From contig JBAZTO010000005.1 of the NCBI GenBank assembly GCA_041661865.1, positions 28,128 through 92,127 of the forward strand: DNA of 64,000 bases. The letters run 5' to 3'. This stretch comes from Phycisphaerae bacterium. Lineage in GTDB: Bacteria > Planctomycetota > Phycisphaerae > SM23-33. Numbering within the stretch: the first letter of the stretch is position 1; the number at the start of each line of letters is the position of its first letter. The position numbers and the translations under genes are program-made. The notes beneath the pieces were generated by a model. That model was not told the DNA's origin and ran no database searches. It worked only from the letters and a program-made list of their open reading frames with translations. This document shows positions 29,525 to 60,568 of this stretch, one piece after another.

Positions 29525-29560
29525 CGGACAACTGGAACCAGTTTCCTGGTTCCAGTTGTC
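29525..29560. terminator. Perfect 14-bp stem hairpin between the convergent phoR and lyase-like genes
   Basis: GGACAACTGGAACC-agtttcct-GGTTCCAGTTGTCC. Confidence 0.6.
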
Positions 29561-29597
29561 CGAGTTTACATCTCAACACATCCAACAACTTCCGCGG

Positions 29598-34825: not shown

Positions 34826-34831
34826 TTGATT

Positions 34832-46014: not shown

Positions 46015-46087
<73 letters not shown>

Positions 46088-46557: not shown

Positions 46558-46938
46558 CTACCCCCTCTTTGCCTCACGAGAGATGGGGGCGGCGGCCAGC
46601 GTGAAGAGTACGACCTTCTCGCCGGTTATGGTGCTGATGTCGTGGTGCAGGCTTACCACCCTGGTCCCTGTGACGCCTTCAACCATGGCCTCCAGCGCCG
46701 GCCGTGCCGTCTCGGTCAACTGGGTCCGCACCTGTTTGAGCAGGTCCCGGCCCGTCTCGGGCGCGAGTTGGGCGACCAAATGCTGCTCGGCCGATGTCAG
46801 CACGCCGTGGAGACGCACCAGGAGAAGATCACCAAAGAGGTGGGCGTGGATGTCCTTGGGGCCACGGCCCATGTACTCCTGCTCAAAGCGGCTGATCCCT
46901 TCGCAGATAGCGGCTTCGATTTCGCCCTGTGTCTTCAT
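46558..46938 (-). CDS. DUF2294 (MpsC-like) family protein, paralog 1
   Basis: It is 126 aa (MKTQGEIEAAICEGISRFEQEYMGRGPKDIHAHL...). It is 85% identical to 55593..55979 and related to 58136..58594. Confidence 0.75.
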   Translation of the reverse strand: MKTQGEIEAAICEGISRFEQEYMGRGPKDIHAHLFGDLLLVRLHGVLTSAEQHLVAQLAPETGRDLLKQVRTQLTETARPALEAMVEGVTGTRVVSLHHDISTITGEKVVLFTLAAAPISREAKRG

Positions 46939-47149
46939 AGAGCACCATCGAACCTGCCGTGACTGGCGGCTTCAAGACCCGCGAGCCAACGCGCGTAACG
47001 CGTTGCTGTAGCAGCAAACAACGGCTGGCCGGCAGTCTCACGTATGTCATTCATCTTAGGAGGCGCCAAATGCGATTTCCTGAATTATCTGCTTTCGGGC
47101 GCCCACCGCGCTACAATGCCCACGTGGCGGAGCGTGCATGAATGCATGG

Positions 47150-47262
47150 GCTCCGGAGTCGGATGACTAGATAAAGGGCAGCCCGGCGCATCGGGAGGCC
47201 CGTTGACGAGTAAGCCGACGCGGTTCTTCACCTTTGGGTGTTAAGCCGCGTCGGCTTTTTTT
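47150..47262 (+). ncRNA. Candidate structured cis-regulatory RNA or small RNA, copy A, with intrinsic terminator
   Basis: It has the conserved core TCGGATGACTAGAtgAAGGGCAGCC-hairpin-GGGAGGCCCGTTGACGAGTAAGCCGACG and a terminator gccgacgcgg...ccgcgtcggc plus T8. A TACAAT -10-like hexamer lies at 47111. Confidence 0.65.
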
Positions 47263-47342
47263 TCTTGGCCGTGCAATCGACAAGTAGGAGTGAAGCTTGA
47301 CGAACCGGCAGCAGAGTAAGCTGAGTCCAGAAAGGGTAAATC

Positions 47343-47594
47343 ATGGCAAAGTTTCTGAACAGAATCATGATGGTCTTGGTGGTAGTGATGATCGCCTGCG
47401 CCTCCAGTGGCTGCAAGACCACCAAGAAAACAGAGGTCAAGGATAAGTTCTTTGGCGGCACACAGATCAAGGAAACGACCGCGACGGAACACGGCGACAA
47501 AGTCACCGTGACCGAGAAGAAGACCGACTACGACACCAAGGGCGATAAGGTCAAGACGGAGACAAAGACCACGGGCGATACAGGCTCTCCGTAA
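47343..47594 (+). CDS. Small Lys/Thr-rich lipoprotein (83 aa)
   Basis: It has the lipobox MIACASSGC and is followed by a KTTKK/TETKT low-complexity region. Confidence 0.6.
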   Translation: MAKFLNRIMMVLVVVMIACASSGCKTTKKTEVKDKFFGGTQIKETTATEHGDKVTVTEKKTDYDTKGDKVKTETKTTGDTGSP

Positions 47595-47735
47595 GCAGCC
47601 AGGCCGTTCCAAGGGCGAGCCGGAGGTGACGATCCGGCCCGATTGCCGTCGCGGATCGGCGGCCCGTCCGAGTGTCTCTCGGAATAAGTGGCAAGAAAGC
47701 TCTATGTCGGCACCTTCTATTCAAGGAGTCTTACG

Positions 47736-47858
47736 ATGTTTACTGCTCTCGCAAATGCTCTTACGCCTGTTCTCGCCGATGGCACGTACATCTACTGGGG
47801 CGGCGGGCTGGGAACCATTCTCATCATCGTGGTGATTGTGCTCGTGCTTCGCCGTTGA
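47736..47858 (+). CDS. Small membrane protein (40 aa, MFTALANALTPVLADGTYIYWGGGLGTILIIVVIVLVLRR)
   Basis: An AAGGAG RBS lies 8 nt upstream, and the protein has a single TM helix. Confidence 0.5.
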   Translation: MFTALANALTPVLADGTYIYWGGGLGTILIIVVIVLVLRR

Positions 47859-47951
47859 GCACTCACAAGACCACCATTGGTCCTCGGATGCTCAAAGAAG
47901 CCCGATGCGGGCTTATGACGGCGTCCGTGGCAGCATTGGAAGGAGTCTTTT

Positions 47952-48115
47952 ATGGGACTGATTCTACTGATCGTGTTGATCCTGCTGCTCGTCGGTGGCC
48001 TGCCGACCTGGCCCCACAGTCGCAGCTGGGGTTATCGACCCACTGGGATTCTCGGAGTGCTGCTGGTGATCCTGGTTGTGCTGCTGATCCTCGACGTCAT
48101 CCCACGCGGATTCTG
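47952..48115 (+). CDS. DUF3309-family small membrane protein (54 aa)
   Basis: MGLILLIVLILLLVGGLPTWPHSRSWGYRPTGILGVLLVILVVLLIL matches the DUF3309 pattern (PxWP.SR.WGY.P.G). A GGAGGAG RBS precedes it. Confidence 0.6.
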
Positions 48116-48190
48116 AGCGACCCGGTGACGGTTAAGAGCCTGCTGTTCCCGCTCTTCCAGGGCCGGCTCGCCGTCATAAAAAGGACCGAC

Positions 48191-48685
48191 ATGAATAAAC
48201 ATCCGCCGTTGACAGGTCAGGCCAGCAGACCCGCCATGGCACTGGGTCTGCTCGCATTTCTGCTTCTCTGGGGCTGCGCCGGGTGCTCTCCGAGCGCCAG
48301 AGCTCCCTCCGTGGCGGTCGAGGCGCCCGGTGCCCTGGCGGCACCGCCTGCTGCCCCGGCCACGCCGCCGGTGGTGCAGGTCACGGGCGAGCGGTCCGAG
48401 TTCGACTTGGGCACTATCAAGGTCGGCAGCAGGCACCGGGTGATCTTCGCCATCCACAACGATTCCGACAAGCCGCTGAAGATCAGAGAGATCCGAGGCG
48501 ACTGCCCCTGCATTACCTCCGCCGAGTCACCCGAGTACATAGCCGCGGGCCAGGTCGCGCGAGTGGTTGCTCTCTTTGAGGCGCCGGACGTTAACGTGCT
48601 TTACGGCTCCGAGCTGATCGTTGTGACCGACGACCCACTACGGAAGATAATCCGCCTGGCGGTGCGGGCCAACATCCGCCGGTAG
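48191..48685 (+). CDS. DUF1573-domain lipoprotein
   Basis: It has the lipobox LLWGCAGCS. The DUF1573-like region is FDLGTIKVGSRHRVIFAIHNDSDKPLKIREIRGDCPCIT. Confidence 0.6.
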   Translation: MNKHPPLTGQASRPAMALGLLAFLLLWGCAGCSPSARAPSVAVEAPGALAAPPAAPATPPVVQVTGERSEFDLGTIKVGSRHRVIFAIHNDSDKPLKIREIRGDCPCITSAESPEYIAAGQVARVVALFEAPDVNVLYGSELIVVTDDPLRKIIRLAVRANIRR

Positions 48686-48714
48686 CGGGTTTCCCGGCAC
48701 ACGGAGGACCAGTG

Positions 48715-49470
48715 ATGCCATTGCGCGACATATCCAAGACGAGAAGGACTTGTTTCGCAACCGCGACGGCTCGGGGTTTCGCCCTGTGGGCGTGCTCCCT
48801 GGCTGCGATCGGCCTGGCCTCGGCCGGTTGCACGTCGTCGGGCATCTCCTCCTCCAGGCTCGACGCCCTGTTCAGGGAGGTCCAGACCCGTGGTGTGTTC
48901 GTTGGGCTGGAGGGCCTCCAGCCATTCTCGGGGTTTCGCGCGGACCAGGTGGTCGGGACCGTTGGCGACGAGTTGGGTCTGGCGCACTCCACCACGTCGG
49001 GAAACTATAGAGTCCACATGCCAATCATCGAACAGGCCAACAAGAGCGGCTGGCCGATCTATCTCCTGGGCTACAGCCTCGGCGGCGACCAGGCCCGGCT
49101 GCTGGCGGAGGCGTGCAACGAACGCGGCATCACCATCCGCATCCTGTTCCTTCTGGATCCGCACTATATGGCCGCTGACGTCCCCGGCAAGATTCCCAGG
49201 AATGTGCAACGGGTGGTCTTCTGTACGAGCCGCAGTTACGACGACGACATCGCGGTGGTTCCAACGGCTGACAATCTCGCCGACGCCAGCCGGACAGTGC
49301 TGCTTGTCGAGGATATTCCGGCCACCGGGCACATGGACCTTCCGGAGTACGTGACCCAACGAATCCGTGTAGAAATCGCCAAGGACTTACAGCAGGCCAG
49401 CGTCCCGGCGGCGCCTCCCTCGCGCCGCGTCCCTGGCGACGGCACACAGGCAAGGAGTGGAAAACGATAA
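48715..49470 (+). CDS. Alpha/beta-hydrolase-like lipoprotein (putative esterase/lipase)
   Basis: It has the lipobox LASAGCTS and the nucleophile-elbow motif GYSLGG. A GGAGGA RBS precedes it. Confidence 0.55.
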   Translation: MPLRDISKTRRTCFATATARGFALWACSLAAIGLASAGCTSSGISSSRLDALFREVQTRGVFVGLEGLQPFSGFRADQVVGTVGDELGLAHSTTSGNYRVHMPIIEQANKSGWPIYLLGYSLGGDQARLLAEACNERGITIRILFLLDPHYMAADVPGKIPRNVQRVVFCTSRSYDDDIAVVPTADNLADASRTVLLVEDIPATGHMDLPEYVTQRIRVEIAKDLQQASVPAAPPSRRVPGDGTQARSGKR

Positions 49471-49496
49471 GTACTCGCCAACACCTGGCCGCGTTT

Positions 49497-49979
49497 GTGA
49501 ATCGTGCCGGTCGCATGGTCGCTTGCGCCATGCTGTGCGCTGTGGCGGGAGGCTGCGACGGCGGCCAGGTGACACACCTGCGCAATGATGCGGAATTCAA
49601 CCAGGTCGTTCTCCAGAGCGACAAACCGGTCCTCGTGGACTTCTACAAGGGCGGGTGCCCGACGTGCATTCGAGTGGATGGCATGATGGGCCAACTGGCC
49701 GAGGAGTACAAGGGCCGGGTAATCGTCGCCAAGTTCATGCTGATGCAGCCGTACTTCGTGGTCACCTCGCCGGAGCTCAAGAGGCAGTATGGCATCGATT
49801 TCTTCCCGACGGTGATCCTGTTCGTCAATGGAAAGGAGACGTGGCGCCTTCTCAGGGACTACGAGCTCGACGACTACCGCAGGGTAATGGACCAGGCTCT
49901 TGGCGTTCCGAGGGCGCCGGTGACTTCCCTCGACACGGGCAAGCCATCGGGCAAATACCCGGCCAACGTCTCGCAATAA
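49497..49979 (+). CDS. Thioredoxin-like lipoprotein; start GTG at 49497 or ATG at 49515
   Basis: It has the lipobox AVAGGCDG and the thioredoxin motif VLVDFYKGGCPTC within the fold. Confidence 0.6.
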   Translation: MNRAGRMVACAMLCAVAGGCDGGQVTHLRNDAEFNQVVLQSDKPVLVDFYKGGCPTCIRVDGMMGQLAEEYKGRVIVAKFMLMQPYFVVTSPELKRQYGIDFFPTVILFVNGKETWRLLRDYELDDYRRVMDQALGVPRAPVTSLDTGKPSGKYPANVSQ

Positions 49980-50076
49980 CATTGGCCCAGATAGATATTT
50001 ATTCTGTATTCCATTTGATTCGGGCGTATTGGGCGCTAGGATGGGGTTTCCGCAGAGCGATAGAGCCGTTCGCACG

Positions 50077-50158
50077 CTCTGTGTCGGATGACTAGATGAA
50101 GGGTAGCCTGGCCCGGCCGGGAGGCCCGTTGGAGAGTAAACCGGCGTGGAAGGTGTCC
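50077..50158 (+). ncRNA. Candidate structured cis-regulatory RNA, copy B, without a terminator; its 3' end is the RBS of the downstream gene
   Basis: It has the same conserved core (TCGGATGACTAGATGAAGGGTAGCC-hairpin-GGGAGGCCCGTTGGAGAGTAAACCGGCG). It is followed by GGAAGG-5 nt-GTG of the DUF1570 lipoprotein. A TAGGAT -10-like hexamer lies at 50037. Confidence 0.55.
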
Positions 50159-51157
50159 GTGCGTTTGTACCTCGCAACGATCGTGGTGGCGACCGGCCTG
50201 ACCCTGGGGGGCTGCGCGCCTGATTCCCAGAGGCAGGCGCTCAATGCCACCCCTGCAAGCAACGCGCCCCCCTGTGCTGCCCTCGCCTCTCAAGTCGGCC
50301 AGACCCTCCAGGTCCACGAGACGGATAGGTTCCTTGTGCTGTCGGCCGCGAACGACGCCTCCGCGGCCGCGACCGGGCAGTTCCTGGAGCAGGCCTATCT
50401 CCGGTTTTACGAGCAGTTCACCCTGGCCGGCTTTGAGCCCAAGCCTCCACGGGACAAATTGACCTGGGTGTGCCTCAACTCCTACGGCGCCCTGGAGGCC
50501 TACGGTCGGGCTGCGGACGGCGCGGACGTGTCGTGGATGGATGCGTACTACTCGCACCGCACCAACCGTGTGGCGGCGGCCATGGCGGCCGGTCGCCCGG
50601 CGCCACAGGCAAGAGTCCGCTCATCGGGTTCCCCTGGCAAGATCGCCGCCTTCAGCGATCCGGGCGGCGGCCAGATCGCCTCCGGCAGCCTTAACATCAG
50701 GACCATCACCCACGAATTGACCCACCAGTTGGCCTTCAACACTGGACTGCAAAGGCGTGGCGTGACCTATCCCTTCTGGCTCACAGAGGGACTGGCCACG
50801 AACTTCGAGGCCGATTCCCCGAAGTCGGTCGGCCTGGGTCGACACGACAGCCGCTATGGCCCGCGACTGGTCGAGGCCAAGGCCGGCGGCAGGTTGATCT
50901 CGCTGGAACAGTTCGTTGGGATGACGGAGTGGTCCGCCGGCCAGGGGACCGCTACGCGTGATGCCTATGCGGAATCGTGGGGGTTATTCCGCTACCTGCT
51001 GGAGCGGCATCCTGTCGCTCTCAAGAAGTATATGGCCGAGATTTCATCGGTGTGGCTCCCGCCGCAGAACAGTGAGTCTCTACGCCGGCGATTCATCGCC
51101 GCTTTCGGCCCCATCAAGCCGCTGGAGGCGAACTTCCTGCGGTCCGTTGACAAGTAG
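50159..51157 (+). CDS. DUF1570-family lipoprotein with an HExxH motif (start taken as GTG at 50159; the listed ORF starts at 50096 inside the RNA element)
   Basis: It has the signal and lipobox LTLGGC, ITHELTHQ as a putative zinc-binding HExxH, and Planctomycete DUF1570-like architecture. Confidence 0.6.
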   Translation: MRLYLATIVVATGLTLGGCAPDSQRQALNATPASNAPPCAALASQVGQTLQVHETDRFLVLSAANDASAAATGQFLEQAYLRFYEQFTLAGFEPKPPRDKLTWVCLNSYGALEAYGRAADGADVSWMDAYYSHRTNRVAAAMAAGRPAPQARVRSSGSPGKIAAFSDPGGGQIASGSLNIRTITHELTHQLAFNTGLQRRGVTYPFWLTEGLATNFEADSPKSVGLGRHDSRYGPRLVEAKAGGRLISLEQFVGMTEWSAGQGTATRDAYAESWGLFRYLLERHPVALKKYMAEISSVWLPPQNSESLRRRFIAAFGPIKPLEANFLRSVDK

Positions 51158-51282
51158 CCCGCGCAGACTGAAACGTCTGAATTCTGAATCGTGCGTGTCC
51201 TTGATCCCATTCCTGGCAATACGCCTGGCGACGCCGTGTGTCGCCATGAAAGGCCACAGCCCCCTCAACTTGCCTCGAAAAA

Positions 51283-51367
51283 CAGGTCACATGACCTGAA
51301 AAAGCAGGTCACCTGCTCAATTGCCCCACAAACACAAAGAGCCGCAACCTTTTCGGGTCACGGCTCT
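51283..51367 (-). terminator. Three consecutive intrinsic terminators downstream of tRNA-Pro on the minus strand
   Basis: The minus strand reads aagagccg...cggctcttTGTGTTTG, then agcaggtgacctgcTTTTT, then caggtcatgtgacctgTTTTT. Confidence 0.6.
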
Positions 51368-51376
51368 TATGTCACT

Positions 51377-51450
51377 CGGGGCGAGAGGATTTGAACCTCC
51401 GACCCCCTGGTCCCAAACCAGGTGCTCTAGCCAAGCTGAGCTACGCCCCG
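51377..51450 (-). tRNA. tRNA-Pro (anticodon TGG)
   Basis: CGGGGCG acceptor pairs with CGCCCCG, the D-arm is GCTCAGCTTGGCTAGAGC, the anticodon loop is TTTGGGA, and the T-arm is GGTTCAAATCC. Confidence 0.9.
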
Positions 51451-51658
51451 TGCGTTCAGCCCAAAGGCCGACAGGGGCATTGTGGCACACGCCTGCCGGT
51501 CCGTCAAGCTAAACGCCCCGAGCGGTTGGGCTGCATTTCAGGTAATCGTGGCAGTGGTGCCGTCGCGGGCGAGGCAATTGTCGCGCGGGCCGGTGTTCGC
51601 GTCGCCGGAATGGACGCAGCCGGCTGCGAAATTAACCGCGACCAACCGGATTAATTGT

Positions 51659-51687
51659 TTTGACTTTGCCCCCCGCAAGCAGGACAA
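51659..51687 (+). promoter_or_regulatory. Sigma-70-like promoter (TTGACT-N17-GACAAT) with a ~190-nt 5' UTR before cspA
   Basis: The hexamer spacing is 17. Cold-shock protein genes typically have long structured 5' UTRs. Confidence 0.45.
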
Positions 51688-51884
51688 TCAGACAGTTAGG
51701 GCTGGCGGGCGTTGGGAGAAGTGCTCCCAGGACACCAGCGAATCCGGTTGGCGACCGTGTTCTTTTGCAGCTTGCACCCAGGTTCTAGCCGCATCGTGAG
51801 TGAACAACTCTTCACAGCGGGTCAGTTCGGCTTGGATGACGCTTGCGAATCCCAAGTGCCGGTTTTTCTCAAGGAGCCATTGTT

Positions 51885-52085
51885 ATGGCAAACGGCAAAG
51901 TGAAGTGGTTTAACGACACCAAGGGTTTCGGGTTCATCACGGGCGAGGACGGCACCGACGCGTTCGTGCATCATGGTGACATCCAGGGCGAAGGCTTCAA
52001 GAGCCTGGCCGAGGGTGAGTCTGTCACGTTCGATATGACCCAGGGCCCCAAGGGCCCCAAGGCCATCAACGTTCGCAAGGCATAA
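51885..52085 (+). CDS. cspA: Cold-shock protein (CspA family)
   Basis: [15 protein letters not shown] and [20 protein letters not shown] are RNP1/RNP2-like motifs. An AAGGAG RBS precedes it. Confidence 0.9.
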
Positions 52086-52215
52086 GCCGCAAGCAAACGT
52101 GAATCACGCGGGCGCCGCCCCTCAAAAGGCGGCGCCTTCTTTTTGCGCCGATCCGCCCGAAGGAGCGCCTCCCAGCCGCCCTCGGCTGGGAGAACCTGCC
52201 CTCCGCCCTTCGCTC

Positions 52216-53235
52216 TCAGCGGATGCGGAAGGCCCGTCGCAGGACCGGCTCGGGGCCGGAGTAGAACTTGACCTCATAGTCTCCCGGCCCGCCGCCCTTG
52301 GCTGCAATCTCGCTGGGGTCAAAGTCATAGCCGAAGCTCTTGTGCTCCTTGCTCCAGCGGATGTCCCTCTCGGCCAGGTCGGTGCGACCCTCCTTGCGGA
52401 CGATGGTCAACCGGAACTGGTTGCGGTCGCACACGGGCGGCAGCTCGACGACGACGAACATTTTCTTGTCGCCGACCTTGTAGGTGTCCTGGAACGTCCA
52501 GCGGTTGTCATACAGCTCGCTGGCCAGCCGAATGGTGTTGGTCGCGTCGATCTTGACCTGCTTGCGCACCGGGGCGAACCACTCCACCAGTTGCACGGCC
52601 ACGCCGTCGGAGGCCTCGGCCAGGCAGGCGTGGGGATCCTTGGAGGGGGGCGAGCCCTCGGCCCAGGCCTGCGACATCGGCGGCCTGGCCGTGGTGGCAA
52701 TGACCGTGCCGTCACTGACGCGGATGAGATTGGCCGTCACCGAGACATTCCCCTCGTTGCGCGTCCAGACGTAGTTGCGATACCCCGAAATGTACATATT
52801 GCCTCTGGAGTCGAAGGCGTAGATCGGATCCTGTCGCGGCTGGCTGTTGGAGGTGCTGTCATAGGTCGCGACGGTTCCCACGAGAATGGCCTGCACGTTG
52901 GTGAGTTTCTGCCGCTGGGCGGCAGAGGCGGCCGCGTCGCTGCCCAGAGCGATCTGAAGATCCTTCTCATCCATGACGGCCTTGAGGTCGTTACGGTTGA
53001 AGACCTTGTACGTGCCGTTGCCGACCAGGCAGGCAGACACCTTGTCGGAGATGATATCCCCGGCCCCCTGATGGCTGGTCTGGTTGCGGAAGGGAGCGAC
53101 CGCGACGGTCTTGAGGTCGGGACTGTAGAAGTCAGGTGTCTGGATGACCGAGATCGTCTTGCTGCAGCCGGTGAGCATCGACAGGGCTGTGGCCAGGACC
53201 AACACGCCGACGTAAGAAACCTTGCACATTCTCAT
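52216..53235 (-). CDS. CsgG-family-like lipoprotein
   Basis: It has the lipobox LTGCS, then VAVAPFRNQTSHQGAGDIISDKV...FKVFNRNDLKAVMDEKDLQ, which resembles the CsgG/LpoB-like N-terminal pattern. Confidence 0.4.
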   Translation of the reverse strand: MRMCKVSYVGVLVLATALSMLTGCSKTISVIQTPDFYSPDLKTVAVAPFRNQTSHQGAGDIISDKVSACLVGNGTYKVFNRNDLKAVMDEKDLQIALGSDAAASAAQRQKLTNVQAILVGTVATYDSTSNSQPRQDPIYAFDSRGNMYISGYRNYVWTRNEGNVSVTANLIRVSDGTVIATTARPPMSQAWAEGSPPSKDPHACLAEASDGVAVQLVEWFAPVRKQVKIDATNTIRLASELYDNRWTFQDTYKVGDKKMFVVVELPPVCDRNQFRLTIVRKEGRTDLAERDIRWSKEHKSFGYDFDPSEIAAKGGGPGDYEVKFYSGPEPVLRRAFRIR

Positions 53236-53362
53236 CGAGTTCTCCTGTTACGTGCATCGGCCGGTTTGGACCCTGCGGCCGGCTGAATATGGCCATTATG
53301 GTAATGGGCGGGAGTCTCGATGACAAGGCCTCAATGGGCCTCAAGATGATCCGAAAGGCCGG

Positions 53363-53704
53363 CTACTCCGGGCGCGGAGACAACTGAATGGTCGCCAGGG
53401 CCGTGGAAACATCCTGGGTGAACTCGAAGGTCTTGTCCAGACCCGTGACCTGGAAGAGGCCCCATGCGTGCGGGCTGATCCCGCACAGAACCATCCGCCG
53501 CCGCCCCGCGTGGAGCAACTTCCGCACGCGAAGCAGCGCGGCGATATTGGAACTGTTGATGAAGCCGACGGTCGAGAAATTCAGCACCACGTCAGTGGTC
53601 TTGGCCTCCAGCGCCGACGCCAGCGCCTCCAGGTCCTCGGAAAACTGGGGGTCTTCCATCAGCTCGACCACGGTAATCTCGTCTGACCAATTCTGAATTC
53701 CCAT
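53363..53704 (-). CDS. STAS-domain anti-sigma-factor antagonist (SpoIIAA/RsbV-like)
   Basis: It is 113 aa with the STAS pattern VVLNFSTVGFINSSNIAALL. Confidence 0.65.
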   Translation of the reverse strand: MGIQNWSDEITVVELMEDPQFSEDLEALASALEAKTTDVVLNFSTVGFINSSNIAALLRVRKLLHAGRRRMVLCGISPHAWGLFQVTGLDKTFEFTQDVSTALATIQLSPRPE

Positions 53705-53728
53705 CGCCGTCGATTCCTTTCACTCACG

Positions 53729-54400
53729 CTAGCCCAGACCCGGACCATCCAGGGGCCCCAGGTCGCTCTCATCCTTATCGGCCATCGCGGCCTCTTTGTT
53801 CTCATCGCCGAGCACACCTTTTGCCACGTGCTGGGCAATGGTCCCCAGGGCCGTGTCGAGAATGACATGGCAGGCCAGCAGGATCGCCAGCGGAATGGCC
53901 AGTTTCTGCATCGTGTCATAAAACGGGCCCGACACGTAGGTGCGCAGGATCAGGCACAGTGCGAAGCCGAACGCCGCCATCACGCCAAAGAGCATCAGCC
54001 CCCACGCGATCATGCGCCGCCCGTAGCTCATCAGGCGGAGAATCATGATGCTCCCGCAGCCGGTGATGATCGTGGCGACGAGGATGCAGGCCATGGTCAT
54101 CCCGGTGGCCGATGCACTGTTGAAGATCACCGCGCTGGAGGGGTTGGTGGCCAGGGCCATCGCCCAGACCACCAGGATCGCCAGGTGCGCCGTCGCCCAG
54201 ACGATGCCGACCCAGCCGACCAGCTCCACCCCCGCCGTGCGAACGGTGAAAGGCTCGGGCGGGTTGACCGGCTTGATGGCCGCGAACCGGGCCTTGCTCA
54301 GTTGCCCGCTTCGCAGCAGCCCGCGAAACAGGGACATCGCAGCCAGAACCGCCAGCGCGACGATGAACGAGGCAAAGATGATCGGTACCAGTGATGCCAT
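53729..54400 (-). CDS. Polytopic membrane protein of unknown function
   Basis: It has 5-6 predicted TM helices and no motif was recognised. Confidence 0.5.
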   Translation of the reverse strand: MASLVPIIFASFIVALAVLAAMSLFRGLLRSGQLSKARFAAIKPVNPPEPFTVRTAGVELVGWVGIVWATAHLAILVVWAMALATNPSSAVIFNSASATGMTMACILVATIITGCGSIMILRLMSYGRRMIAWGLMLFGVMAAFGFALCLILRTYVSGPFYDTMQKLAIPLAILLACHVILDTALGTIAQHVAKGVLGDENKEAAMADKDESDLGPLDGPGLG

Positions 54401-54428
54401 AAACGCTCCTTATTTCCGCCCGACGGCG

Positions 54429-55397
54429 TCACCTCATCCGGTACACCAGGCGGTGGTCCAGACCCATCGCCCGCACCGTCGGCAGGATGTCCTTAAAGAA
54501 CCGGTTCCCATCTTGATAATAGCCCGCCGTGGGCAGGAGATCGGGTACATGTTCAGCCCAATATGCGTTGAGGACCTCCATGAGCATCTCGCGGAGGTAC
54601 TTGCTGGCCATGGACGCCAGCGCGACGGGAAGCTGCTTTTCCTCGGCGGCGACGGAGAAATGCATCTCGGCCCAGCGCCGGCCGTCGGCGATGCGATAGG
54701 AACTGCTGGTCTCGCTCTCGTCGATGATCTTGAACGAGCAGCCGGCAAAGGCCCGCTGCAGGCCCTCCAGGTAGTGCATGCGTCCGCCCTGGCGATCGAC
54801 GAAAATGCGGATGTTCTGCCCGCCGGCGAGGTTCCACAGGAACATCAGCAGGCGACAGGCGACGTCGAAGAGCATGGTGGACTTGTTGCCCGCGTCGGTC
54901 AGGCGATTGAATTCCTCCTCCAGCACGACCTCGCTGCGCAGGGCCAGCAGTTCGACGCCGGCTTTCCGCATCGACTCGCCCAGGCTGTTGCACGCCAGGC
55001 CGGCTGTGGTGGCCGACATGCTGCGCGGCAGGGGCAGGTCCAGCCCGCGATACCAATTACACGCCGATGCCCTGGCCACAGCGGCGGGAGAAAGTTCCTC
55101 CAGCAGGCCTCGCAGGGTCGGGGGCAGCGGGCGCGTCGTGCCCAGCATGGCCAGCACGCCGCGCTCCAGGTTGGACAGCCCGGCCGGGCCTCGCATGCCG
55201 CCGTAGAGTTTCTTGGAGTCGCCGATGGCGATGCGGCTGGGGCGCTTGGGCACGCGGCGGGTGACCGCGCCCGACAGGAGCTGCCACATCGAGGCCTCGG
55301 CCGGCTCGTCGGGAATGGAAAATGCGGCGGCCGAAACCACCAGCGGGCCCAGCACCGGGCCCAGACCTGCCTCGTCGATGCCTGCAATAATCGCCAA
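54429..55397 (-). CDS. rnhB: Ribonuclease HII-like (RnhB) with a C-terminal extension
   Basis: The N-terminus IAGIDEAGLGPVLGPLVVSAAAF and the IGDSKKL motif are the RNase HII signatures. At 322 aa it is longer than typical RnhB. Confidence 0.6.
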   Translation of the reverse strand: MAIIAGIDEAGLGPVLGPLVVSAAAFSIPDEPAEASMWQLLSGAVTRRVPKRPSRIAIGDSKKLYGGMRGPAGLSNLERGVLAMLGTTRPLPPTLRGLLEELSPAAVARASACNWYRGLDLPLPRSMSATTAGLACNSLGESMRKAGVELLALRSEVVLEEEFNRLTDAGNKSTMLFDVACRLLMFLWNLAGGQNIRIFVDRQGGRMHYLEGLQRAFAGCSFKIIDESETSSSYRIADGRRWAEMHFSVAAEEKQLPVALASMASKYLREMLMEVLNAYWAEHVPDLLPTAGYYQDGNRFFKDILPTVRAMGLDHRLVYRMR

Positions 55398-55592
55398 GGA
55401 AACTCCCCTACTGCCTAAAGACGTAACACCTTCGTGGCGTTGTAGTGCCAGACCCTCGGACCCCGCCGGGGCCCAATGAGAGAGGATTATAGAGTGCAGG
55501 GCATGGATAACAACAGGATTGCGCGGGGAGCGGACAGGCCCGCGGCCGCTGGATCGTGCCAGGAGCTTGGGCGCGGGGCAGGCAGCCCCGCC

Positions 55593-55979
55593 CTACAGTT
55601 GCTTCTTCGGCTCGCGAGAAACAGAGGGTGCGGCCAGCGTGAAGAGCACGACCTCCTCGCCGGTTACGGTGCTGATGTCATGGTGCAGGCTTACCACCTT
55701 GGCCCCGGTGATTCCGTGGATCATGGCCTCCAAGGCCGGCCTGGCGGTTTCCACCAACTGGGTCCGCACTTGCTTAAGCAGGTCGCGGCCCTTCTCGGCG
55801 GAGAGCTTGGCGACCAGATGCTGTTCGGCCGCCGTCGGGACGCCGTGGAGACGCACCAGGAGAAGATCGCCGCCAATCAGGTGGGCATGGATGTCCTTGG
55901 GACCACGGCCCATATATTCCTGTTCAAAGCGGCTGATCCCTTCGCAGATAGCCGCTTCGATCTCGCCCTGCGTCTTCAT
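55593..55979 (-). CDS. DUF2294 (MpsC-like) family protein, paralog 2
   Basis: It is near-identical to 46558..46938 over ~120 aa. A GAGGTG RBS precedes it. Confidence 0.75.
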   Translation of the reverse strand: MKTQGEIEAAICEGISRFEQEYMGRGPKDIHAHLIGGDLLLVRLHGVPTAAEQHLVAKLSAEKGRDLLKQVRTQLVETARPALEAMIHGITGAKVVSLHHDISTVTGEEVVLFTLAAPSVSREPKKQL

Positions 55980-56194
55980 AAGCACCTCAAATGCGCCGCA
56001 GTTCAAGAAACCAGAGGCAGGGAGGCACCCATCCCGATGCCCTGACAGAACAGAGACCTACATCTTTCCGGCCAGCCCGGATTCCATAGCCATGATAGCA
56101 GGCGCGGAACGCGATTTCCGGAATTAGCATATTTCGGTCACTCGCCGCGCTATGATATGACATGAGTTTAGCGGGGCGTATGCTGAAGCGTGTG

Positions 56195-56306
56195 CTCCGA
56201 ATCGGATGACTAGACGAAGGGCATCCCTGCCAAGCGGGGAGGCCTGTTGACGAGTAAGCCGATGTGGTTTTGCACCCTTGGGTGCGTAACCGCGTCGGCT
56301 TTTTTT
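56195..56306 (+). ncRNA. Candidate structured cis-regulatory RNA or small RNA, copy C, with intrinsic terminator
   Basis: It has the conserved core with ACGAAGG rather than ATGAAGG, hairpin ccctgccaagcgggg, and terminator gccgatgtgg...ccgcgtcggc plus T7. A TATGAT -10-like hexamer lies at 56151. Confidence 0.65.
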
Positions 56307-56359
56307 ATGGCTTGATGGCCCAGGAAGCGATGGCGGCGATGGATGATAGGAGAACAAAC

Positions 56360-56494
56360 ATGAACAGGACTTGGCTCGGCGTTATCGGCGCAATTCTGGC
56401 GGTTGTTGTCCTGGCGTGGCTGCTCGGCAGCAAGATGAGCTGCCATGAGAGCTTCTGGAACAAGGACAAGCAGGTCATCGAGATTAATCGGTGA
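56360..56494 (+). CDS. Small membrane protein (44 aa, MNRTWLGVIGAILAVVVLAWLLGSKMSCHESFWNKDKQVIEINR)
   Basis: It has a single TM helix and a weak GGAGAA RBS. It lies just downstream of RNA copy C. Confidence 0.4.
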   Translation: MNRTWLGVIGAILAVVVLAWLLGSKMSCHESFWNKDKQVIEINR

Positions 56495-56535
56495 GCTGGT
56501 TCTGCCCCCTGCACGAAGGCAACAGGAGCATGACC

Positions 56536-57714
56536 ATGGAAACTCGAACCCTCCCATCGCGGGGGCCGCCCGTGGCCCCAGGCAGGACTGGGCGTTGGAA
56601 GAGTGCGGCGCCAAGGCCTCTACCCTTCGCGAAGACTCCGCGGGAAGGCGAAACAGAAAGAGTTCCGGCGGCGGAAGGCGCGGATTCGCGGGAACAACCC
56701 ACGCCAGTTCGGTTCAAACCGAGCGAAGCTTATGAACTGTCCGGCGACCAGGTGGACGGCGCGGCCATTGCCCGAGCTGTCGACGCCATCGAGATCACCT
56801 GCGGCTATCGCTTCCTCCATGACTGGCTGGTCGTGCAAGGCTTCATCGAGGCCAGGCCGGGAGGCTTGCACCTGAGCCGATGGGACACCCTGCCGGAGTC
56901 GGGGCTTTTCCTGGCCTGGGCAGGGTCCAAACTGGTTGCGGTCCAGGCCGCCGTTCCAGAAGGACAGGACAAGGGCCTCCCGTCCGCCGGGCCGTTCTAC
57001 ATCGAGATCGGCAACCTTCGCCGCCGAGGGAGCCGGCTTTGCGAACTGGGCATGTCAGCCGTCACGCCGGCACTTCAGAAGAGCGTCCTCCCGGCGGAGA
57101 TGATTCGCTGCTGCGTGGCCCACGCCGTGGCCGCGGGATGCAGCCAGGTCGTCGCCACGGTCGATCCGTCGAAGGCGCGGCAATACTCCGACTGGGGCTT
57201 CAGTATCGCCAATCCCATCCGCGTGTTCTCCAGCGACATGCCTTTTCCAGCCGTGTTGGCCAGTCTGGACCTGGAGGCCCTTGCCAGGGCCGGGGGTGAG
57301 TCGGAAGTCTTCGCGGGTGGCCTGTCGCCACGGGATTACTACATAGATCGCAACCCCTACCTTCGCCACGCCGAACGGTGGTCGGTGCAGGCGGGTGACA
57401 CCTTCGGCAGCGCGGAATTTCTTCGCGAGTTGTTCGTGAGGCGGAGCGGCCTGCTGGAGCGGTGCAACGAAGAAGAATTGGCAACGATCTGCCGGGAGTG
57501 GGGCCGATCGTTGTTCGATCAGGTATGGACGGGGCCCGCGATCCCGGCATGGCGATCCGAGATGAGCGAGTCCGAACCGACCACGGGGCCGCGGGTTGCC
57601 GCGGTCGGCCGTCGCGGTCCAGCGTCGGGAAGCAGGCCACGTCCTCAACGCGGCAACCCGTCGCCCGTGGAGATGCATGCCGCACTGCTGCTGGCGGCTG
57701 GGAGCGTCTCGTAG
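56536..57714 (+). CDS. Hypothetical protein (~392 aa)
   Basis: A CAGGAG RBS lies 7 nt before the ATG at 56536. No family was recognised. Confidence 0.45.
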   Translation: METRTLPSRGPPVAPGRTGRWKSAAPRPLPFAKTPREGETERVPAAEGADSREQPTPVRFKPSEAYELSGDQVDGAAIARAVDAIEITCGYRFLHDWLVVQGFIEARPGGLHLSRWDTLPESGLFLAWAGSKLVAVQAAVPEGQDKGLPSAGPFYIEIGNLRRRGSRLCELGMSAVTPALQKSVLPAEMIRCCVAHAVAAGCSQVVATVDPSKARQYSDWGFSIANPIRVFSSDMPFPAVLASLDLEALARAGGESEVFAGGLSPRDYYIDRNPYLRHAERWSVQAGDTFGSAEFLRELFVRRSGLLERCNEEELATICREWGRSLFDQVWTGPAIPAWRSEMSESEPTTGPRVAAVGRRGPASGSRPRPQRGNPSPVEMHAALLLAAGSVS

Positions 57715-57806
57715 AAGGGTCGGAAACATTAAATTGATTAATAACCCTTTTGACCCGACTCCGCTGCCTACAATGGCACATCTGGAGATCAGGCCAAGCG
57801 AGCCGG

Positions 57807-57920
57807 CTCCGGGTCGGATGACTAGATGAAGGGCAGCCCCGTTGTGACGGGAGGCCCGTTGACGAGTAAGCCGACGTGGTTTTACACCCTTGGGTGTTCA
57901 GCCGCGTCGGCTCTTTTTTT
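57807..57920 (+). ncRNA. Candidate structured cis-regulatory RNA or small RNA, copy D, with intrinsic terminator
   Basis: It has the conserved core, hairpin cccgttgtgacggg, and terminator gccgacgtgg...ccgcgtcggc plus T7. A TTGACC-N12-TACAAT element lies at 57751-57774. Confidence 0.65.
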
Positions 57921-58135
57921 GTTTCAGGCCGGTGCGAAACGTCGCGGTGGCAAAAGACTGAAGCCTATGATCGCATATAGATTTACCATAACGCAGCAGG
58001 TCGCCCAGGCGGCTGTCGCATACCGGCGGCGGAGCGCGGGTTACGTGTGTGCGTCGGCGGCCTTGAGCGTTCAAACCTCCACAATCCTGTTTACTCGGTG
58101 GTACGGGGGCCCCGTGACCACCCATGAGGAGTCCA

Positions 58136-58594
58136 ATGGACACGTCCCAATCAAATATGGCGCAGCAGGTGGCACAGGCTGTGATGGCCTTCCAGCAGAA
58201 GATGACCGGCCATGCGCCTAAGGCGGTCACCGTGGTCCTGAGTCAGGACACTCTGGTGGTCACGCTGCACGAGGCCCTGTCGCCGGCAGAGAGAGACATG
58301 GCCAAGAGCCCCTCAGGCGCCGCGACGGTGCAGGAGTTTCACCGCCAGCTCTTCTTCAATTCCTCCCAGTCGTTGCGGGAGGAGATCAAGAGGATCACCG
58401 GCGTGGAAGTGCGGGAAGTTGTCGCGGAAGTCGAGCCTTCGACGGGGGCGATGGTGTGCGCCTTCGCGAGCGGGACCATGGTGCAGGTGTTCCAACTCGC
58501 CCAGGGCATCCCCGCGGACACCTGGAACAAGAGCGGATCAACGGATCAGCCGGGTTCCATGCGGGACAAACCGAAAGAGGCAGGTGCAAGATGA
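58136..58594 (+). CDS. DUF2294 (MpsC-like) family protein, paralog 3 (divergent)
   Basis: It shares the family core VTVVLSQDTLVVTLHEALSPAERDMAKSPSGAATVQEFHRQLF. A GAGGAG RBS precedes the ATG at 58136. Confidence 0.7.
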   Translation: MDTSQSNMAQQVAQAVMAFQQKMTGHAPKAVTVVLSQDTLVVTLHEALSPAERDMAKSPSGAATVQEFHRQLFFNSSQSLREEIKRITGVEVREVVAEVEPSTGAMVCAFASGTMVQVFQLAQGIPADTWNKSGSTDQPGSMRDKPKEAGAR

Positions 58595-58631
58595 AGCCTA
58601 TGATGAGAGGGACAGGTGCAAGATGAAGCCT
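58578..58631 (+). repeat. 23-nt tandem duplication spanning the DUF2294-3 stop codon and creating the start codon of the next gene
   Basis: caggtgcaagatgaagcctatga occurs at 58578-58600 and again at 58609-58631. Confidence 0.7.
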
Positions 58632-58841
58632 ATGACAATTATCGGTATTGTTCTCATAGTCCTGGGCGTGGCCGGCCTGGTCTTCCAGGGCATCAGTTAC
58701 ACGACGACCGAGAAGGTCGTGGACCTCCCGGGCCTCCAGGTCAATGCCGAAAAGGAAAAGACGATCCCAATTCCGGCCATCGTGGGCGGGTTGGCGCTGG
58801 CCGGCGGCGTGGCAATCGTGGTCGCGTCGCGGAAGACGTAG
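58623..58841 (+). CDS. Small membrane protein (72 aa)
   Basis: MKPMTIIGIVLIVLGVAGLVF...IVGGLALAGGVAIVVASRKT has two hydrophobic helices. A GAGAGGGA RBS precedes it. Confidence 0.5.
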   Translation: MKPMTIIGIVLIVLGVAGLVFQGISYTTTEKVVDLPGLQVNAEKEKTIPIPAIVGGLALAGGVAIVVASRKT

Positions 58842-59044
58842 CGCGGCGAGAGTGGTCTGTCAGGCATGGATTGATGGGTGGCACAGGCTTTCGAGCCTGT
58901 GTATGCACAGCCTGGAAAGGCTGTGCCACCGGGCATGCCCATCAGTTGACGGCTGACAGACCAGTGGAACGTCGCGGCGAGATCCGGGAAGAACCGGACA
59001 GCCGGGTGACGAGGAATGCGACGTCATAACAGAAAGGGCTACAC

Positions 59045-59266
59045 ATGAGTACGATCGGCAAGAGATTACTGGGTCTCCTTTTGATCCTGATGGTAGCGAT
59101 ACCGCTGGGGTGCGTGAACATCAACGACGGCCCGCGGGAACATCGATCGGAACGACATACGGAAGTCGGCGGCCGACATGGTGTCGTCGTGGATCGCTCG
59201 GACTCCGGAACTGACGTAAAGGTCGGTGGCGACCACGGCGTCGTTGTGGATCATCCGCGGGACTAG
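59045..59266 (+). CDS. Small lipoprotein (73 aa) with a repeated HGVVVD motif
   Basis: It has the lipobox IPLGC and a duplicated GGRHGVVVDRSDSG / GGDHGVVVDHPRD segment. Confidence 0.45.
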   Translation: MSTIGKRLLGLLLILMVAIPLGCVNINDGPREHRSERHTEVGGRHGVVVDRSDSGTDVKVGGDHGVVVDHPRD

Positions 59267-59372
59267 ACGGCTGGAGACCGGCGACGACGCCGGCAACTCC
59301 GAGTATCAGCGGGAGTTGCGGTCCGGGAAGCCGCATATCAGTTCCCCTAATCCCATTTGAAGGAGAAGCACC

Positions 59373-59771
59373 ATGAACAAGCTTGTGGTAGTAGCGTTAA
59401 TGGCCGCGGTCGCTCTTGTGGGCTGCAAGAAGAGCGAAGAGGGCGGCCGAGCCGGGAACGACACGTTCAAGGTCGTCGTCCCAGCCATGTCCACCGATGT
59501 CAAGCAGGGTGAGTTTCAAAGCGTCCGCGTGTCGGTGGAGCGAGGCGAGGGATTCAAGCAGGCGGTCAAACTGGAAGTGAAAGCCCCCACGGGTCTGCAA
59601 GTTGATCCCGATAGCACCACGGTGCAGCCAGGCGACAAGGGCGAGGTGCAATTGAAGATCACGGCCGCCAAGGACGCCCCCCTGGGCGATCAGAAGATCA
59701 TGGTCAAAGGCACGCCGGACAAGGGCGAGTCCGTGGAACTGGAGTTCAAGGTTACAGTCGGCGCCAAGTGA
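59373..59771 (+). CDS. Lipoprotein, paralog A of a tandem pair
   Basis: It has the lipobox LVGC and a shared architecture with 59842..60243 (FKV..P.....VKQGE..SV..SV.RG..FK..V.LE......G..V.P....V....). An RBS is present. Confidence 0.55.
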   Translation: MNKLVVVALMAAVALVGCKKSEEGGRAGNDTFKVVVPAMSTDVKQGEFQSVRVSVERGEGFKQAVKLEVKAPTGLQVDPDSTTVQPGDKGEVQLKITAAKDAPLGDQKIMVKGTPDKGESVELEFKVTVGAK

Positions 59772-59841
59772 CGCTGCCGCCGTCCCTCGATGGGCAACGG
59801 CGATTATTGGGCAAGGTCCATTTTGAGAAAGGGAAGTAAGT

Positions 59842-60243
59842 ATGAAAACGACACTACTGATCGTGATGGCACTGGCCGTGACAGTCGCACTGGGTTGCGA
59901 GAGCCCCCGAGGCGGGGGCATGTCCGGTGGCGAAGGGTTCAAGATCGGCACTCCGACCTTCACCACACAGGTCAAGCAGGGCGAAACCGAAAGCGTGACC
60001 ATCTCGGTGAACAGAGGTAAGTATTTCAAGCGGGACGTGACCCTGGAAATCAATGCGTCCAAGGGCATCAGCGTCGAACCGACCCAGGCCACGGTTAAAG
60101 GGAACGAGACACCGGACGTGCATCTTCGGATTACGGCGGCCAAGGACGCGGATCTTGGCGAATACAAGGTCTATGTGAAGGGCACGCCGGAAAGCGGAGA
60201 GGCGACCTCGACGGAGATCACGGTGAAGGTCGTCTCCCCGTAA
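59842..60243 (+). CDS. Lipoprotein, paralog B of a tandem pair
   Basis: It has the lipobox ALGC and the same pattern as paralog A (...ITAAKDA.LG..K..VKGTP..GE...E..V.V). Confidence 0.55.
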   Translation: MKTTLLIVMALAVTVALGCESPRGGGMSGGEGFKIGTPTFTTQVKQGETESVTISVNRGKYFKRDVTLEINASKGISVEPTQATVKGNETPDVHLRITAAKDADLGEYKVYVKGTPESGEATSTEITVKVVSP

Positions 60244-60350
60244 TCGCCGGCAGGCCGTTTCGGCACGGCCGGATGAATAGCGCGGATAGGTCCGTCGCCG
60301 AATCGCACCCTGTGCGATGAACGGGCAGAACTGCGGAAAGGAACGTCATC

Positions 60351-60503
60351 ATGCTTTGGACGTTAGTCGTCATATTGCTGGTGTTGTGGCTGTTGGGAAT
60401 GATCACGTCCTACACGCTCAGCGGGTTTATCCACATCCTGCTGGTGGTGGCGCTGATCGTCGTGCTGGTGCGGGTGATCCAGGGGCGGCGGGTGATACCG
60501 TAG
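60351..60503 (+). CDS. Lmo0937-family small membrane protein (50 aa)
   Basis: MLWTLVVILLVLWLLGMITSYTLSGFIHILLVVALIVVLVRVIQGRR matches the Lmo0937 family pattern. Confidence 0.6.
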   Translation: MLWTLVVILLVLWLLGMITSYTLSGFIHILLVVALIVVLVRVIQGRRVIP

Positions 60504-60568
60504 GGCCGGCCTCGGACGCCCGGAAACATACACCGCGTGGAAAATGATCGCACTGAGGAGAATGTCTT

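Follow-up and report, generated by a model that had tools for sequence, protein, structure and literature searches.

The question raised by this locus is why one small protein family and one structured RNA are so closely associated. In a 64,000-nt window of a Phycisphaerae bacterium (contig JBAZTO010000005.1, positions 28,128 to 92,127), three genes of the DUF2294 (MpsC-like) family each adjoin a copy of the same RNA element, about 115 nt in length. An initial annotation, made from the letters of the window alone, had read this repeated linkage as a functional regulatory pairing, had taken two of the genes to have been duplicated as a block together with their intergenic region and RNA, and had seen a hint of an ion-responsive signal in the association of MpsC proteins with cation and CO2 transport. 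Our analysis of the window, meaning the whole of that stretch, and of related genomes suggests a conserved gene-control module of the Planctomycetota, in which a leader RNA with a conditional terminator is combined with DUF2294 genes in two different ways. We put the probability of this explanation as a whole at roughly one half.

A covariance-model scan of the window, run with filters off, returned exactly four copies of the RNA, all on the plus strand, and nothing else credible: copy A (47150-47264, 110 bits), copy B (50075-50173, 57 bits), which is devoid of a terminator, copy C (56193-56308, 112 bits) and copy D (57805-57920, 111 bits). The core word TCGGATGACTAGA has four exact occurrences, against 0.97 expected in shuffled sequences with up to two mismatches allowed. 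Each DUF2294 gene has an RNA copy beside it, as the initial annotation had stated; the copies concerned are A, C and D. Paralog 1 (46558..46938, minus strand; 126 amino acids, N-terminus MKTQGEIEAA) and paralog 2 (55593..55979, minus strand) are transcribed away from copies A and C, respectively, while paralog 3 (58136..58594, plus strand, starting at 58124 or 58136) follows copy D on its own strand and begins 215 nt past the U-tract. The identification of these genes was sound: all three belong to Pfam family PF10057 (MpsC / DUF2294 / COG5609 YbcI), with scores of 123.8, 115.6 and 79.1 bits, above the curated gathering cutoff of 23 bits.

The three paralogs had been treated as equivalent, and in this respect the picture changes. 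Between paralogs 1 and 2, identity is 83.3% at the protein level and 83.6% at the DNA level, close to the earlier estimate of about 85%; paralog 1 is 100% identical to a protein (P0001) of a Phycisphaerae metagenome-assembled genome; the best 120 homologues of paralog 1 are about 75-83% identical to it, and those of paralog 3 68-87%, and the two groups are only about 22% identical to each other. Judged by these identities, DUF2294 here comprises two deep, old subfamilies, which we call d1 (paralogs 1 and 2) and d3 (paralog 3). The motifs G-x-x-P-K, T-G and T-G are kept across both subfamilies, whose homologues carry the JGI product name YbcI. As set out below, the d1 genes stand divergently and outside the RNA-led transcript, whereas the d3 genes stand under the leader.

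The structure of the RNA was derived from an alignment of 124 distinct instances, using RNAalifold and explicit pair counts. The core is closed by a stem of 5 bp, P1, in which (G/A)UCGG pairs with CCG(A/G)(C/U). Above it, two near-invariant 3x3 internal loops, AUG/AAG and AGA/A(C/A)G, are arranged around an invariant ACU/AGU mini-helix, and the following stem, P2 (U-R-R plus GRGC paired with GYYC plus UUG, with one G-C pair replaced by A-U in 44 sequences), bears a capping hairpin with several compensated pairs. The core is followed by the terminator, a long hairpin ending in U6-9. Many loci also have a 5′ hairpin, GGAGC...GCUCC; in those where it is absent, the -10 box lies about 10 nt before P1. 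RNAalifold finds compensatory changes in 23 of the 34 predicted pairs, and finds them in the terminator pairs as well (alignment columns 82-99 with 129-146). In the P1-P2 model, 96.8% of cells pair, and double changes are seen in 86 cells against 6.0 in shuffles, none of 500 shuffles reaching the observed value; shifted registers pair in just 25-50% of cells, and 8 of the 11 P2 pairs show double changes. Because of this excess and of the poor pairing of shifted registers, P2 and the terminator are well supported as real structures and provide the covarying structured domain by which a riboswitch is recognized. All four cores of the window adopt the same rod when folded alone, that of copy A at -28.9 kcal/mol (z = -3.0). 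In two copies elsewhere (L048, 5859-6012, and L077, 57-230; loci outside the window are given by such numbers), the apical loop of the terminator is enlarged by an additional hairpin of about 40 nt.

The 5′ arm of the terminator opens with the five bases (CCGAC) that also form the 3′ strand of P1, so that the two structures overlap. In the minimum free energy folds of full-length copies A and D, the terminator forms and P1 is broken; since the full-length folds thus form the terminator and lose P1, the default state would be termination, and the RNA probably works as an ON switch based on a conditional terminator. Among the 190 RNA copies that nhmmer detects in the loci described below, 183 either share one terminator or end with their contig at this point. 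The terminator-less exceptions are copy B and its ortholog in locus L054. Both precede a gene for a DUF1570 lipoprotein, and in both GGAAGG and a start codon come immediately after P1, placing a Shine-Dalgarno (SD) sequence where the terminator would otherwise be.

A scan of one genome per GTDB species, with a pattern made from the two invariant loop strands, found the RNA in at least 118 genome loci, almost all of them in the Planctomycetota (Pirellulales, Gemmatales, Isosphaerales, Planctomycetales, Phycisphaerae and Tepidisphaerales). The few genome bins labelled otherwise are probably mis-binned, because they, too, carry planctomycete-type DUF2294 genes. In many cases, several copies are present per contig or genome, with about five or more per genome. 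The RNA occupies the position expected of a riboswitch, in the 5′-untranslated region, on the same strand and directly before an open reading frame (ORF), and appears to act in cis. Start codons of d3 genes lie at a median of 48 nt past the U-tract, 26 of 37 falling within 19-50 nt, and in several loci, for example L009, L082, L090 and L021, the U-tract runs straight into an SD sequence, so that a separate downstream promoter could not be accommodated. From this layout, we infer that expression of the downstream genes would depend on readthrough. A group of d3-led operons shares a second hairpin, GGUGGn...ACCACC, together with an AGGGA SD sequence, between the terminator and the start codon (about 50 nt past the terminator in L119, L121, L106, L045, L024, L052, L005 and L087).

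How tightly DUF2294 is tied to the RNA was measured with a hidden Markov model built from the three window proteins and searched in the loci chosen by their RNA, of up to 8 kb each. About 100 DUF2294 ORFs were found there, and a DUF2294 gene lies within 600 nt of about 49 of 134 RNA instances. The two subfamilies differ in their placement: 35 d1 genes have the RNA divergently upstream, 1 is downstream on the same strand, 4 are in tandem and 23 are far from it, whereas the corresponding numbers for d3 are 0 divergent, 28 downstream on the same strand, 0 in tandem and 9 far. With the RNA detected by nhmmer, a divergent copy lies within 450 nt of 51 of 68 d1 genes, and 44 of 46 d3 genes have a same-strand copy upstream, 37 of them at up to 450 nt and 7 at up to 1.8 kb, as later genes of the same operon; for the other two d3 genes, the RNA is cut by the end of the contig. 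A test independent of the RNA gave the same picture. When six d1-type and three d3-type proteins were looked up on long metagenome contigs, all six d1 loci chosen in this way by protein only had the RNA divergently upstream, and all four distinct d3 loci proved to lie in an RNA-led operon, in two cases with one gene between the RNA and d3, encoding a MscS-like channel (L128) or a 231-amino-acid ORF (L129). The comparative check proposed with the initial annotation, whether DUF2294 genes in related genomes go with the motif, has therefore a clear answer, and the pairing of one RNA motif with one protein family, held in a fixed geometry across the Planctomycetota, is stronger than had been claimed.

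The d1 start codon also keeps a narrowly distributed spacing from the RNA (median 215 nt, interquartile range 192-222). The spacer contains conserved blocks that read as two back-to-back promoters and the ribosome-binding site of d1, and the RNA promoter has the consensus CTTGC(A/T)T-N17-TAcAAT across loci, of the housekeeping (sigma-70-like) type. As in antitermination systems, a candidate regulator gene thus adjoins an RNA that overlaps a terminator, in a geometry unlike that of the known examples. A palindrome, (A/T)TTCCnGAAT, is found 68-85 nt before the start of the RNA model in 10 of 185 instances, against a background of 0.5%. It occurs at 47072-47087 and 56111-56126 of the window and in L034, L070, L074, L084, L110 and L129, is restricted to a clade whose leaders bear the GGAGC...GCUCC 5′ hairpin and may be an operator common to the two divergent promoters. 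In other genomes, the module takes in signalling and osmotic genes: L120 (1181-4561) has d1 followed by KaiC, KaiB, a PAS protein and another MpsC; L122 (3001-4147) has d1 followed by a further RNA copy and a PAS protein; and in L128 (1090-3477), the MscS-like channel stands between the RNA and d3.

The two d1 modules of the window, A and C, lie 9 kb apart and are alike, and this had suggested that the DUF2294 gene, the intergenic region and the RNA were duplicated as a block. Their homology is real: the intergenic strings quoted in the initial annotation are found, GCGATTTCCTGAATTA at 47072-47087 and GCGATTTCCGGAATTA at 56111-56126, followed by CCGCGCTACAAT and CCGCGCTATGAT, and the promoter block is 68% identical. 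An alignment of the two units of about 700 bp, run as had been recommended, shows this homology to be patchy and confined to functional blocks rather than continuous. The coding sequences are 83% identical and the RNA core with the terminator 82.5%, whereas the 106 nt following the coding sequence (49%) and the sequence beyond the terminator (44%) are at chance level, and the RNA 5′ hairpin reaches 45%. Synonymous divergence (dS) between paralogs 1 and 2 is about 0.58, with a ratio of non-synonymous to synonymous divergence (dN/dS) of 0.16, and paralog 2 is closer to proteins of other metagenomes (84.9% identity) than to paralog 1 (83.3%). A recent segmental duplication would have left continuous high identity, neutral sites included; with a dS of 0.58 and spacers at 45-49%, this is not what is seen. 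Because of this divergence, the chance-level spacers and the closer relationship of paralog 2 to outside proteins, modules A and C are old paralogous copies, kept by selection, of a module that existed long before this genome. A recent local duplication without functional coupling, the scenario that would have undone the proposed pairing, has a practically negligible chance of being correct: it is contradicted by the same measurements and by the presence of the module in dozens of genomes from several orders.

The genes placed under the RNA give an indication of what the module is for. Pfam families of the first downstream ORF were counted for 119 RNA instances and, among the top 25 families, MpsC leads with 21, followed by DUF3309 and Transgly_assoc (GlsB/YeaQ/YmgE) with 6 each, DUF1328 and GT4 glycosyltransferases with 5 each, CsbD with 4, Hsp20, CsrA and response regulators with 3 each, YflT, sigma-70 family proteins, PAS/histidine kinases and DUF1570 with 2 each, and Hsp70 with 1. 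Several of these families are standard in the general-stress regulons of other bacteria, and the RNA-led genes look like a general-stress or envelope-stress set. The proposed ion or CO2 connection finds no support. It derives only from the Pfam name, and neither the NuoL-like MpsA nor the DUF2309 protein MpsB/DabA was found among the 119 first downstream ORFs, in 13 annotated loci or in the scanned neighbours in the window, so that no MpsABC-type operon is present in the annotated neighbourhoods. Since the MpsA and MpsB homologues are absent there, the Pfam name is no guide to function here. The content of the regulon points to general stress, and the RNA matches no Na+ or Li+ riboswitch.

As far as the available tools show, the RNA is an undescribed leader family, matching no Rfam family and found in no paper. 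With Rfam 15, the window yielded only two transfer RNAs (tRNAs) at gathering score; copy A searched at E <= 10 gave nothing relevant, with no match to the Na+ (DUF1646) or Li+ (nhaA-I) riboswitches, ykkC or ydaO, and six related loci from four orders had no match at E <= 0.01. A full-text literature search returned no description of this RNA or its core words and nothing relevant on DUF2294. Several other identities were considered and set aside. Matches to the Rfam families mir-8303 and Pxr are chance hits on the terminator hairpin. The core is not coding: the ATG codons at 50096 and 57826 open ORFs in copies B and D, but copies A and C have ATA and ACG at this place, and the stems covary. 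A kink-turn or sarcin-ricin reading of the internal loops fits the sequence inconsistently. CGGAUGAC resembles what we take to be the CsrA consensus obtained by systematic evolution of ligands by exponential enrichment (SELEX), but CsrA was rejected as a partner, csrA lying downstream in 3 of 119 instances only and just one GGA being invariant. The invariant core GAUGACUAGAUGA (47163-47174, 50088-50099 and 57818-57829) has stop codons in all three frames, and most copies hold a mini-ORF, AUG-ACU-AGA-stop, where copy C (56206-56217) has CGA in place of the stop and others have UUG.

Taken together, these features can be arranged into a mechanism. A strong promoter of the sigma-70 type (approximately TTGCAT-N17-TACAAT) would drive the leader of about 115 nt; by default, the terminator would form and transcription would stop, and if P1 were held closed, the terminator would be blocked and RNA polymerase would read into the genes a few tens of nucleotides further on. 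The d1 protein, constitutively expressed from the back-to-back promoter about 215 nt away, would act on the leader, while d3, which is leader-controlled and the commonest first gene under it, would provide feedback. Our tentative choice of trigger is d1, acting on the leader either directly or as a sensor. It is favoured because it is the sole gene with a fixed place beside the RNA yet outside the leader, and because it has a housekeeping-type promoter and is as strongly conserved as the RNA; a leader-controlled paralog such as d3 is what a feedback circuit would be expected to contain. A broader claim, namely that the Planctomycetota run their general stress response mainly after initiation, through a phylum-wide set of conditional-terminator leaders instead of an alternative sigma factor, and that d1 is the first of a new class of sensor/antiterminators that close P1, with d3 as feedback, we consider unlikely.

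Several observations weigh against this proposal. P1, on which the switch would turn, is nearly invariant and has little covariation behind it, with double changes in 2 of 6 pairs and one pair unpaired in 28 of 124 sequences. The terminator is near-identical everywhere, which is atypical of a riboswitch expression platform and would suit a stable small RNA. As for d1 as trigger, the protein is neutral to acidic, PF10057 is its sole domain match, it bears no RNA-binding signature, and neither a Pfam scan nor Foldseek found a known RNA-binding domain or fold in DUF2294. The AlphaFold model of d1 is confident (mean predicted local distance difference test, pLDDT, 91.9; secondary-structure order a-b-b-a-a-a-b-b), but Foldseek against the PDB gave nothing at E <= 0.001, the best hit being TRAPPC3/Bet3 with a template modelling (TM) score of 0.38. 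Sequence searches of the PDB, with single proteins or a profile, gave no significant match for DUF2294, and NCBIfam has no model for the DUF2294 genes or the small downstream genes of the window. Moreover, an RNA-binding regulator would have no obvious need for a divergent promoter, for 11 of the 68 d1-class genes the upstream 1.8 kb contain no RNA, and paralog 3, at 215 nt past the terminator of copy D, could have its own promoter.

The leader might instead be a classical riboswitch, directly binding a small molecule or ion such as a stress alarmone, a second messenger or a cation, with d3 as cargo and d1 as a co-located, co-regulated gene rather than a trigger. Invariant internal-loop bases between covarying stems and a P1 that overlaps the terminator are riboswitch-like, as is the joining of the same core to another expression platform, an SD sequence, in copy B and L054, and a regulon of many operons, with about five or more copies in each genome, is of the kind known for riboswitches. 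The missing RNA-binding signature of DUF2294 points the same way, and the site formed by its conserved motifs G-x-x-P-K, T-G and T-G would rather suit a small ligand. We regard this reading, the nearest competitor of d1 as trigger, as somewhat less likely than the latter. It leaves unexplained the fixed divergent position of d1, 192-222 nt from the RNA in 75-100% of cases; a single expression platform in 183 of 190 copies is atypical of riboswitches; no known model matches, so that homology suggests no ligand; and general-stress regulons usually integrate several signals. The fixed divergent spacing is, in turn, the classic layout of a transcription factor and its target, and d1 might be a DNA-binding regulator working at the promoter level on the shared back-to-back promoter, for example through the TTCCnGAA palindrome, with the RNA constitutive or otherwise regulated. 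The conserved blocks of the spacer and the positioned palindrome in one clade would suit such a role, which is nonetheless improbable: the d1 model has no helix-turn-helix or other DNA-binding fold, the palindrome is present in just 10 of 185 instances, most RNA copies have no adjoining d1 yet possess the same sigma-70-like promoter, and conservation is strongest in the transcribed RNA rather than in the promoter.

The uniform terminator leads to a different suggestion, that the copies are free-standing genes for trans-acting small RNAs, whose proximity to DUF2294 and stress genes reflects co-inheritance or a chaperone role of DUF2294. Each copy does have its own promoter, an efficient-looking terminator and a length of about 110-150 nt, and the multiplicity of copies with strong sequence conservation, including the terminator hairpin, is also small-RNA-like. 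What makes this very improbable is the arrangement downstream, where same-strand genes begin 19-50 nt past the U-tract, often with an immediate SD sequence and no room for a promoter, and where the two terminator-less copies, B and L054, abut an SD sequence. The copies are thus not independent units between flanking genes with promoters of their own, although the terminated product could also act as a small RNA. The reading that we prefer remains that of a conditional-terminator leader with d1 outside it and d3 under it.

The individual features of the window fit this scheme as follows. In module A, the predicted -10 box of the paralog-1 promoter, TAAGAT (47053..47058, minus strand), stands where an alignment of 21 d1-RNA spacers shows a conserved (T/C)ATGATAC block, and the palindromic box at 47072..47087, a possible operator, lies between the two back-to-back promoters. 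The promoter of copy A (47089..47117, plus strand) was recognized by inspection as a -35 box CTGCTT, a 17-nt spacer and a -10 box TACAAT (47112-47117). It is followed on the same strand by the optional 5′ hairpin GGAGC...GCUCC (47128..47155, from a fold of 47120-47266), the core (47158..47219), made up in order of P1 (GUCGG/CCGAC), the two 3x3 loops on either side of ACU/AGU, P2 and the hairpin, and the intrinsic terminator (47213..47263), whose 5′ arm takes in the P1 3′ strand and which ends in U8. The first gene led by copy A (47343..47594, plus strand) encodes an 83-amino-acid Lys/Thr/Glu-rich lipoprotein with lipobox SSGC and a GC content at third codon positions (GC3) of 0.77; it has no Pfam family above cutoff. 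Copy B has a predicted promoter, again found by inspection, of TTGATT, a 16-nt spacer and TAGGAT (50015..50042, plus strand), a core matching the covariance model with the same fold (50083..50145) and, directly after P1, the SD sequence GGAAGG (50148-50153). It leads a DUF1570 gene (50159..51157, plus strand; PF07607, 64.8 bits), whose ORF opens at 50096 inside the RNA and whose likely start is GTG 50159; with its HExxH motif and a signal peptide ending in lipobox LGGC, the product would be a metalloprotease-like lipoprotein.

The promoter block of module C (56092..56156) comprises a predicted -10 box of paralog 2, TATCAT (minus strand, 56092-56097), the palindrome at 56111-56126 and the predicted -10 box of RNA copy C, TATGAT (56151-56156). 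The core of copy C (56201-56263, by covariance-model match), with P1 AUCGG/CCGAU, in which an A-U closing pair replaces G-C, and the terminator together span 56201..56305 on the plus strand. They are followed on this strand (56360..57714) by a gene for a 44-amino-acid membrane peptide (56360-56494) and another, ending at 57714, for a FeeM-like N-acyl amino acid synthase (PF21926, 59.6 bits). Copy D (57769..57920, plus strand) consists of a -10 box TACAAT (57769-57774), the 5′ hairpin, the core (57813-57875) and a terminator reaching 57920. At about 45 nt past this terminator, ATG 57967 opens a decayed remnant of a d3 N-terminus (MIAYRFTITQQVAQAAVAY..., 57967..58050, plus strand), recognized by a direct repeat in which 57992-58027 and 58161-58196 are 72% identical. 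In the operon that copy D heads, paralog 3 comes first among the intact genes, and its unusual 215-nt gap is accounted for by this decayed duplicate of the d3 5′ end at the usual distance, which points to a local rearrangement between copy D and paralog 3. In the same region, the word TGAAGCCTATGA is repeated at 57959, 58592 and 58624, and a 31-nt tandem repeat spans the d3 stop codon and the start of the next ORF (58573-58636). The probable remainder of the operon (58625..62278, plus strand) consists of same-strand ORFs with a coding signature, namely a 72-amino-acid protein with two transmembrane segments, small lipoproteins (59045-59266, 59373-59771 and 59842-60243) and a 569-amino-acid protein; comparable strings of small genes follow d3 in L123, L125, L128 and L129.

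A simple promoter and terminator scan missed the RNA promoters, whose -35 box is unlike TTGACA, and registered the long terminators as sub-hairpins only. Between the RNA copies of the window lie genes for a cold-shock protein (CSD, 90 bits; 51843-52085) and a STAS anti-sigma-antagonist-like protein (53363-53704), and the two tRNA genes are at 46015-46087 and 51376-51450. Elsewhere in the window, the region 29400-35000 has no ORF of 100 or more amino acids with a strong GC3 coding signature, the GC content drops to 0.46-0.49 at 34.0-35.0 kb, and a weak terminator-like minus-strand match to the RNA model (21.7 bits) is found at 29516-29594.

Little has been mapped of how the Planctomycetota regulate their genes, and if the proposed module is real, one short RNA marks a phylum-wide stress regulon and lists its genes. 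The RNA adds an orphan class to the riboswitch-like leaders and makes a search for its trigger possible, and DUF2294/MpsC, a widespread uncharacterized family, gains a testable role apart from its Pfam name. Should d1 prove to be an antiterminator, this would be the first molecular role for PF10057 (MpsC/YbcI).

Among known systems, the closest in form are the ON riboswitches, such as guanidine-I (ykkC) and the Na+-responsive DUF1646 motif. Like these, the RNA is a same-strand 5′ leader of several operons per genome, with a conserved core, covarying stems, invariant loop bases and a P1 whose 3′ strand belongs to the terminator; it differs in having no match in Rfam 15 and a near-invariant expression platform (183 of 190 copies), and in being tied to a protein gene at a fixed divergent position outside the regulated transcript, for which we know of no parallel among riboswitch classes. 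The protein-dependent antitermination systems, BglG/LicT/SacY with the ribonucleic antiterminator (RAT), HutP-hut, PyrR and ANTAR, likewise place an RNA site over a terminator with a candidate regulator gene beside the target, and in several of them the regulator also controls other operons with the same site. DUF2294, in contrast, has no CAT/PRD, HutP, PyrR or ANTAR domain and no fold match, and d1 is divergent instead of lying in the operon. MpsABC of Staphylococcus aureus and ndhF-ybcCFHI of Bacillus subtilis include members of the same family, PF10057, and are the setting from which its name was taken; a literature search on MpsC itself found little described. Here, the annotated neighbourhoods have no NuoL-like MpsA or DUF2309/DabA-like MpsB, and the family forms two deep subfamilies tied to an RNA leader and stress genes.

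In content, the module overlaps the sigma-B regulon of Bacillus and the EcfG/PhyR regulons of the Alphaproteobacteria, with CsbD, YflT, Hsp20 and GlsB/YeaQ/YmgE, and with small membrane proteins and STAS or PAS signalling proteins in common. Those regulons differ in their promoters: the RNA promoters are of the housekeeping type (TTGCAT-N17-TACAAT), presumably unlike the sigma-B or EcfG consensus, and the element that the genes share here is part of the transcript and carries a terminator, an indication that control is exerted after initiation. By analogy with these systems, the RNA looks like a leader that works in the manner of an ON-type transcriptional riboswitch or a RAT-type antitermination leader, outside any described RNA family. 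To our knowledge, the geometry of two paralogs, one outside and one under the leader, has not been reported for known leader RNAs, and it suggests a sensor-plus-feedback circuit.

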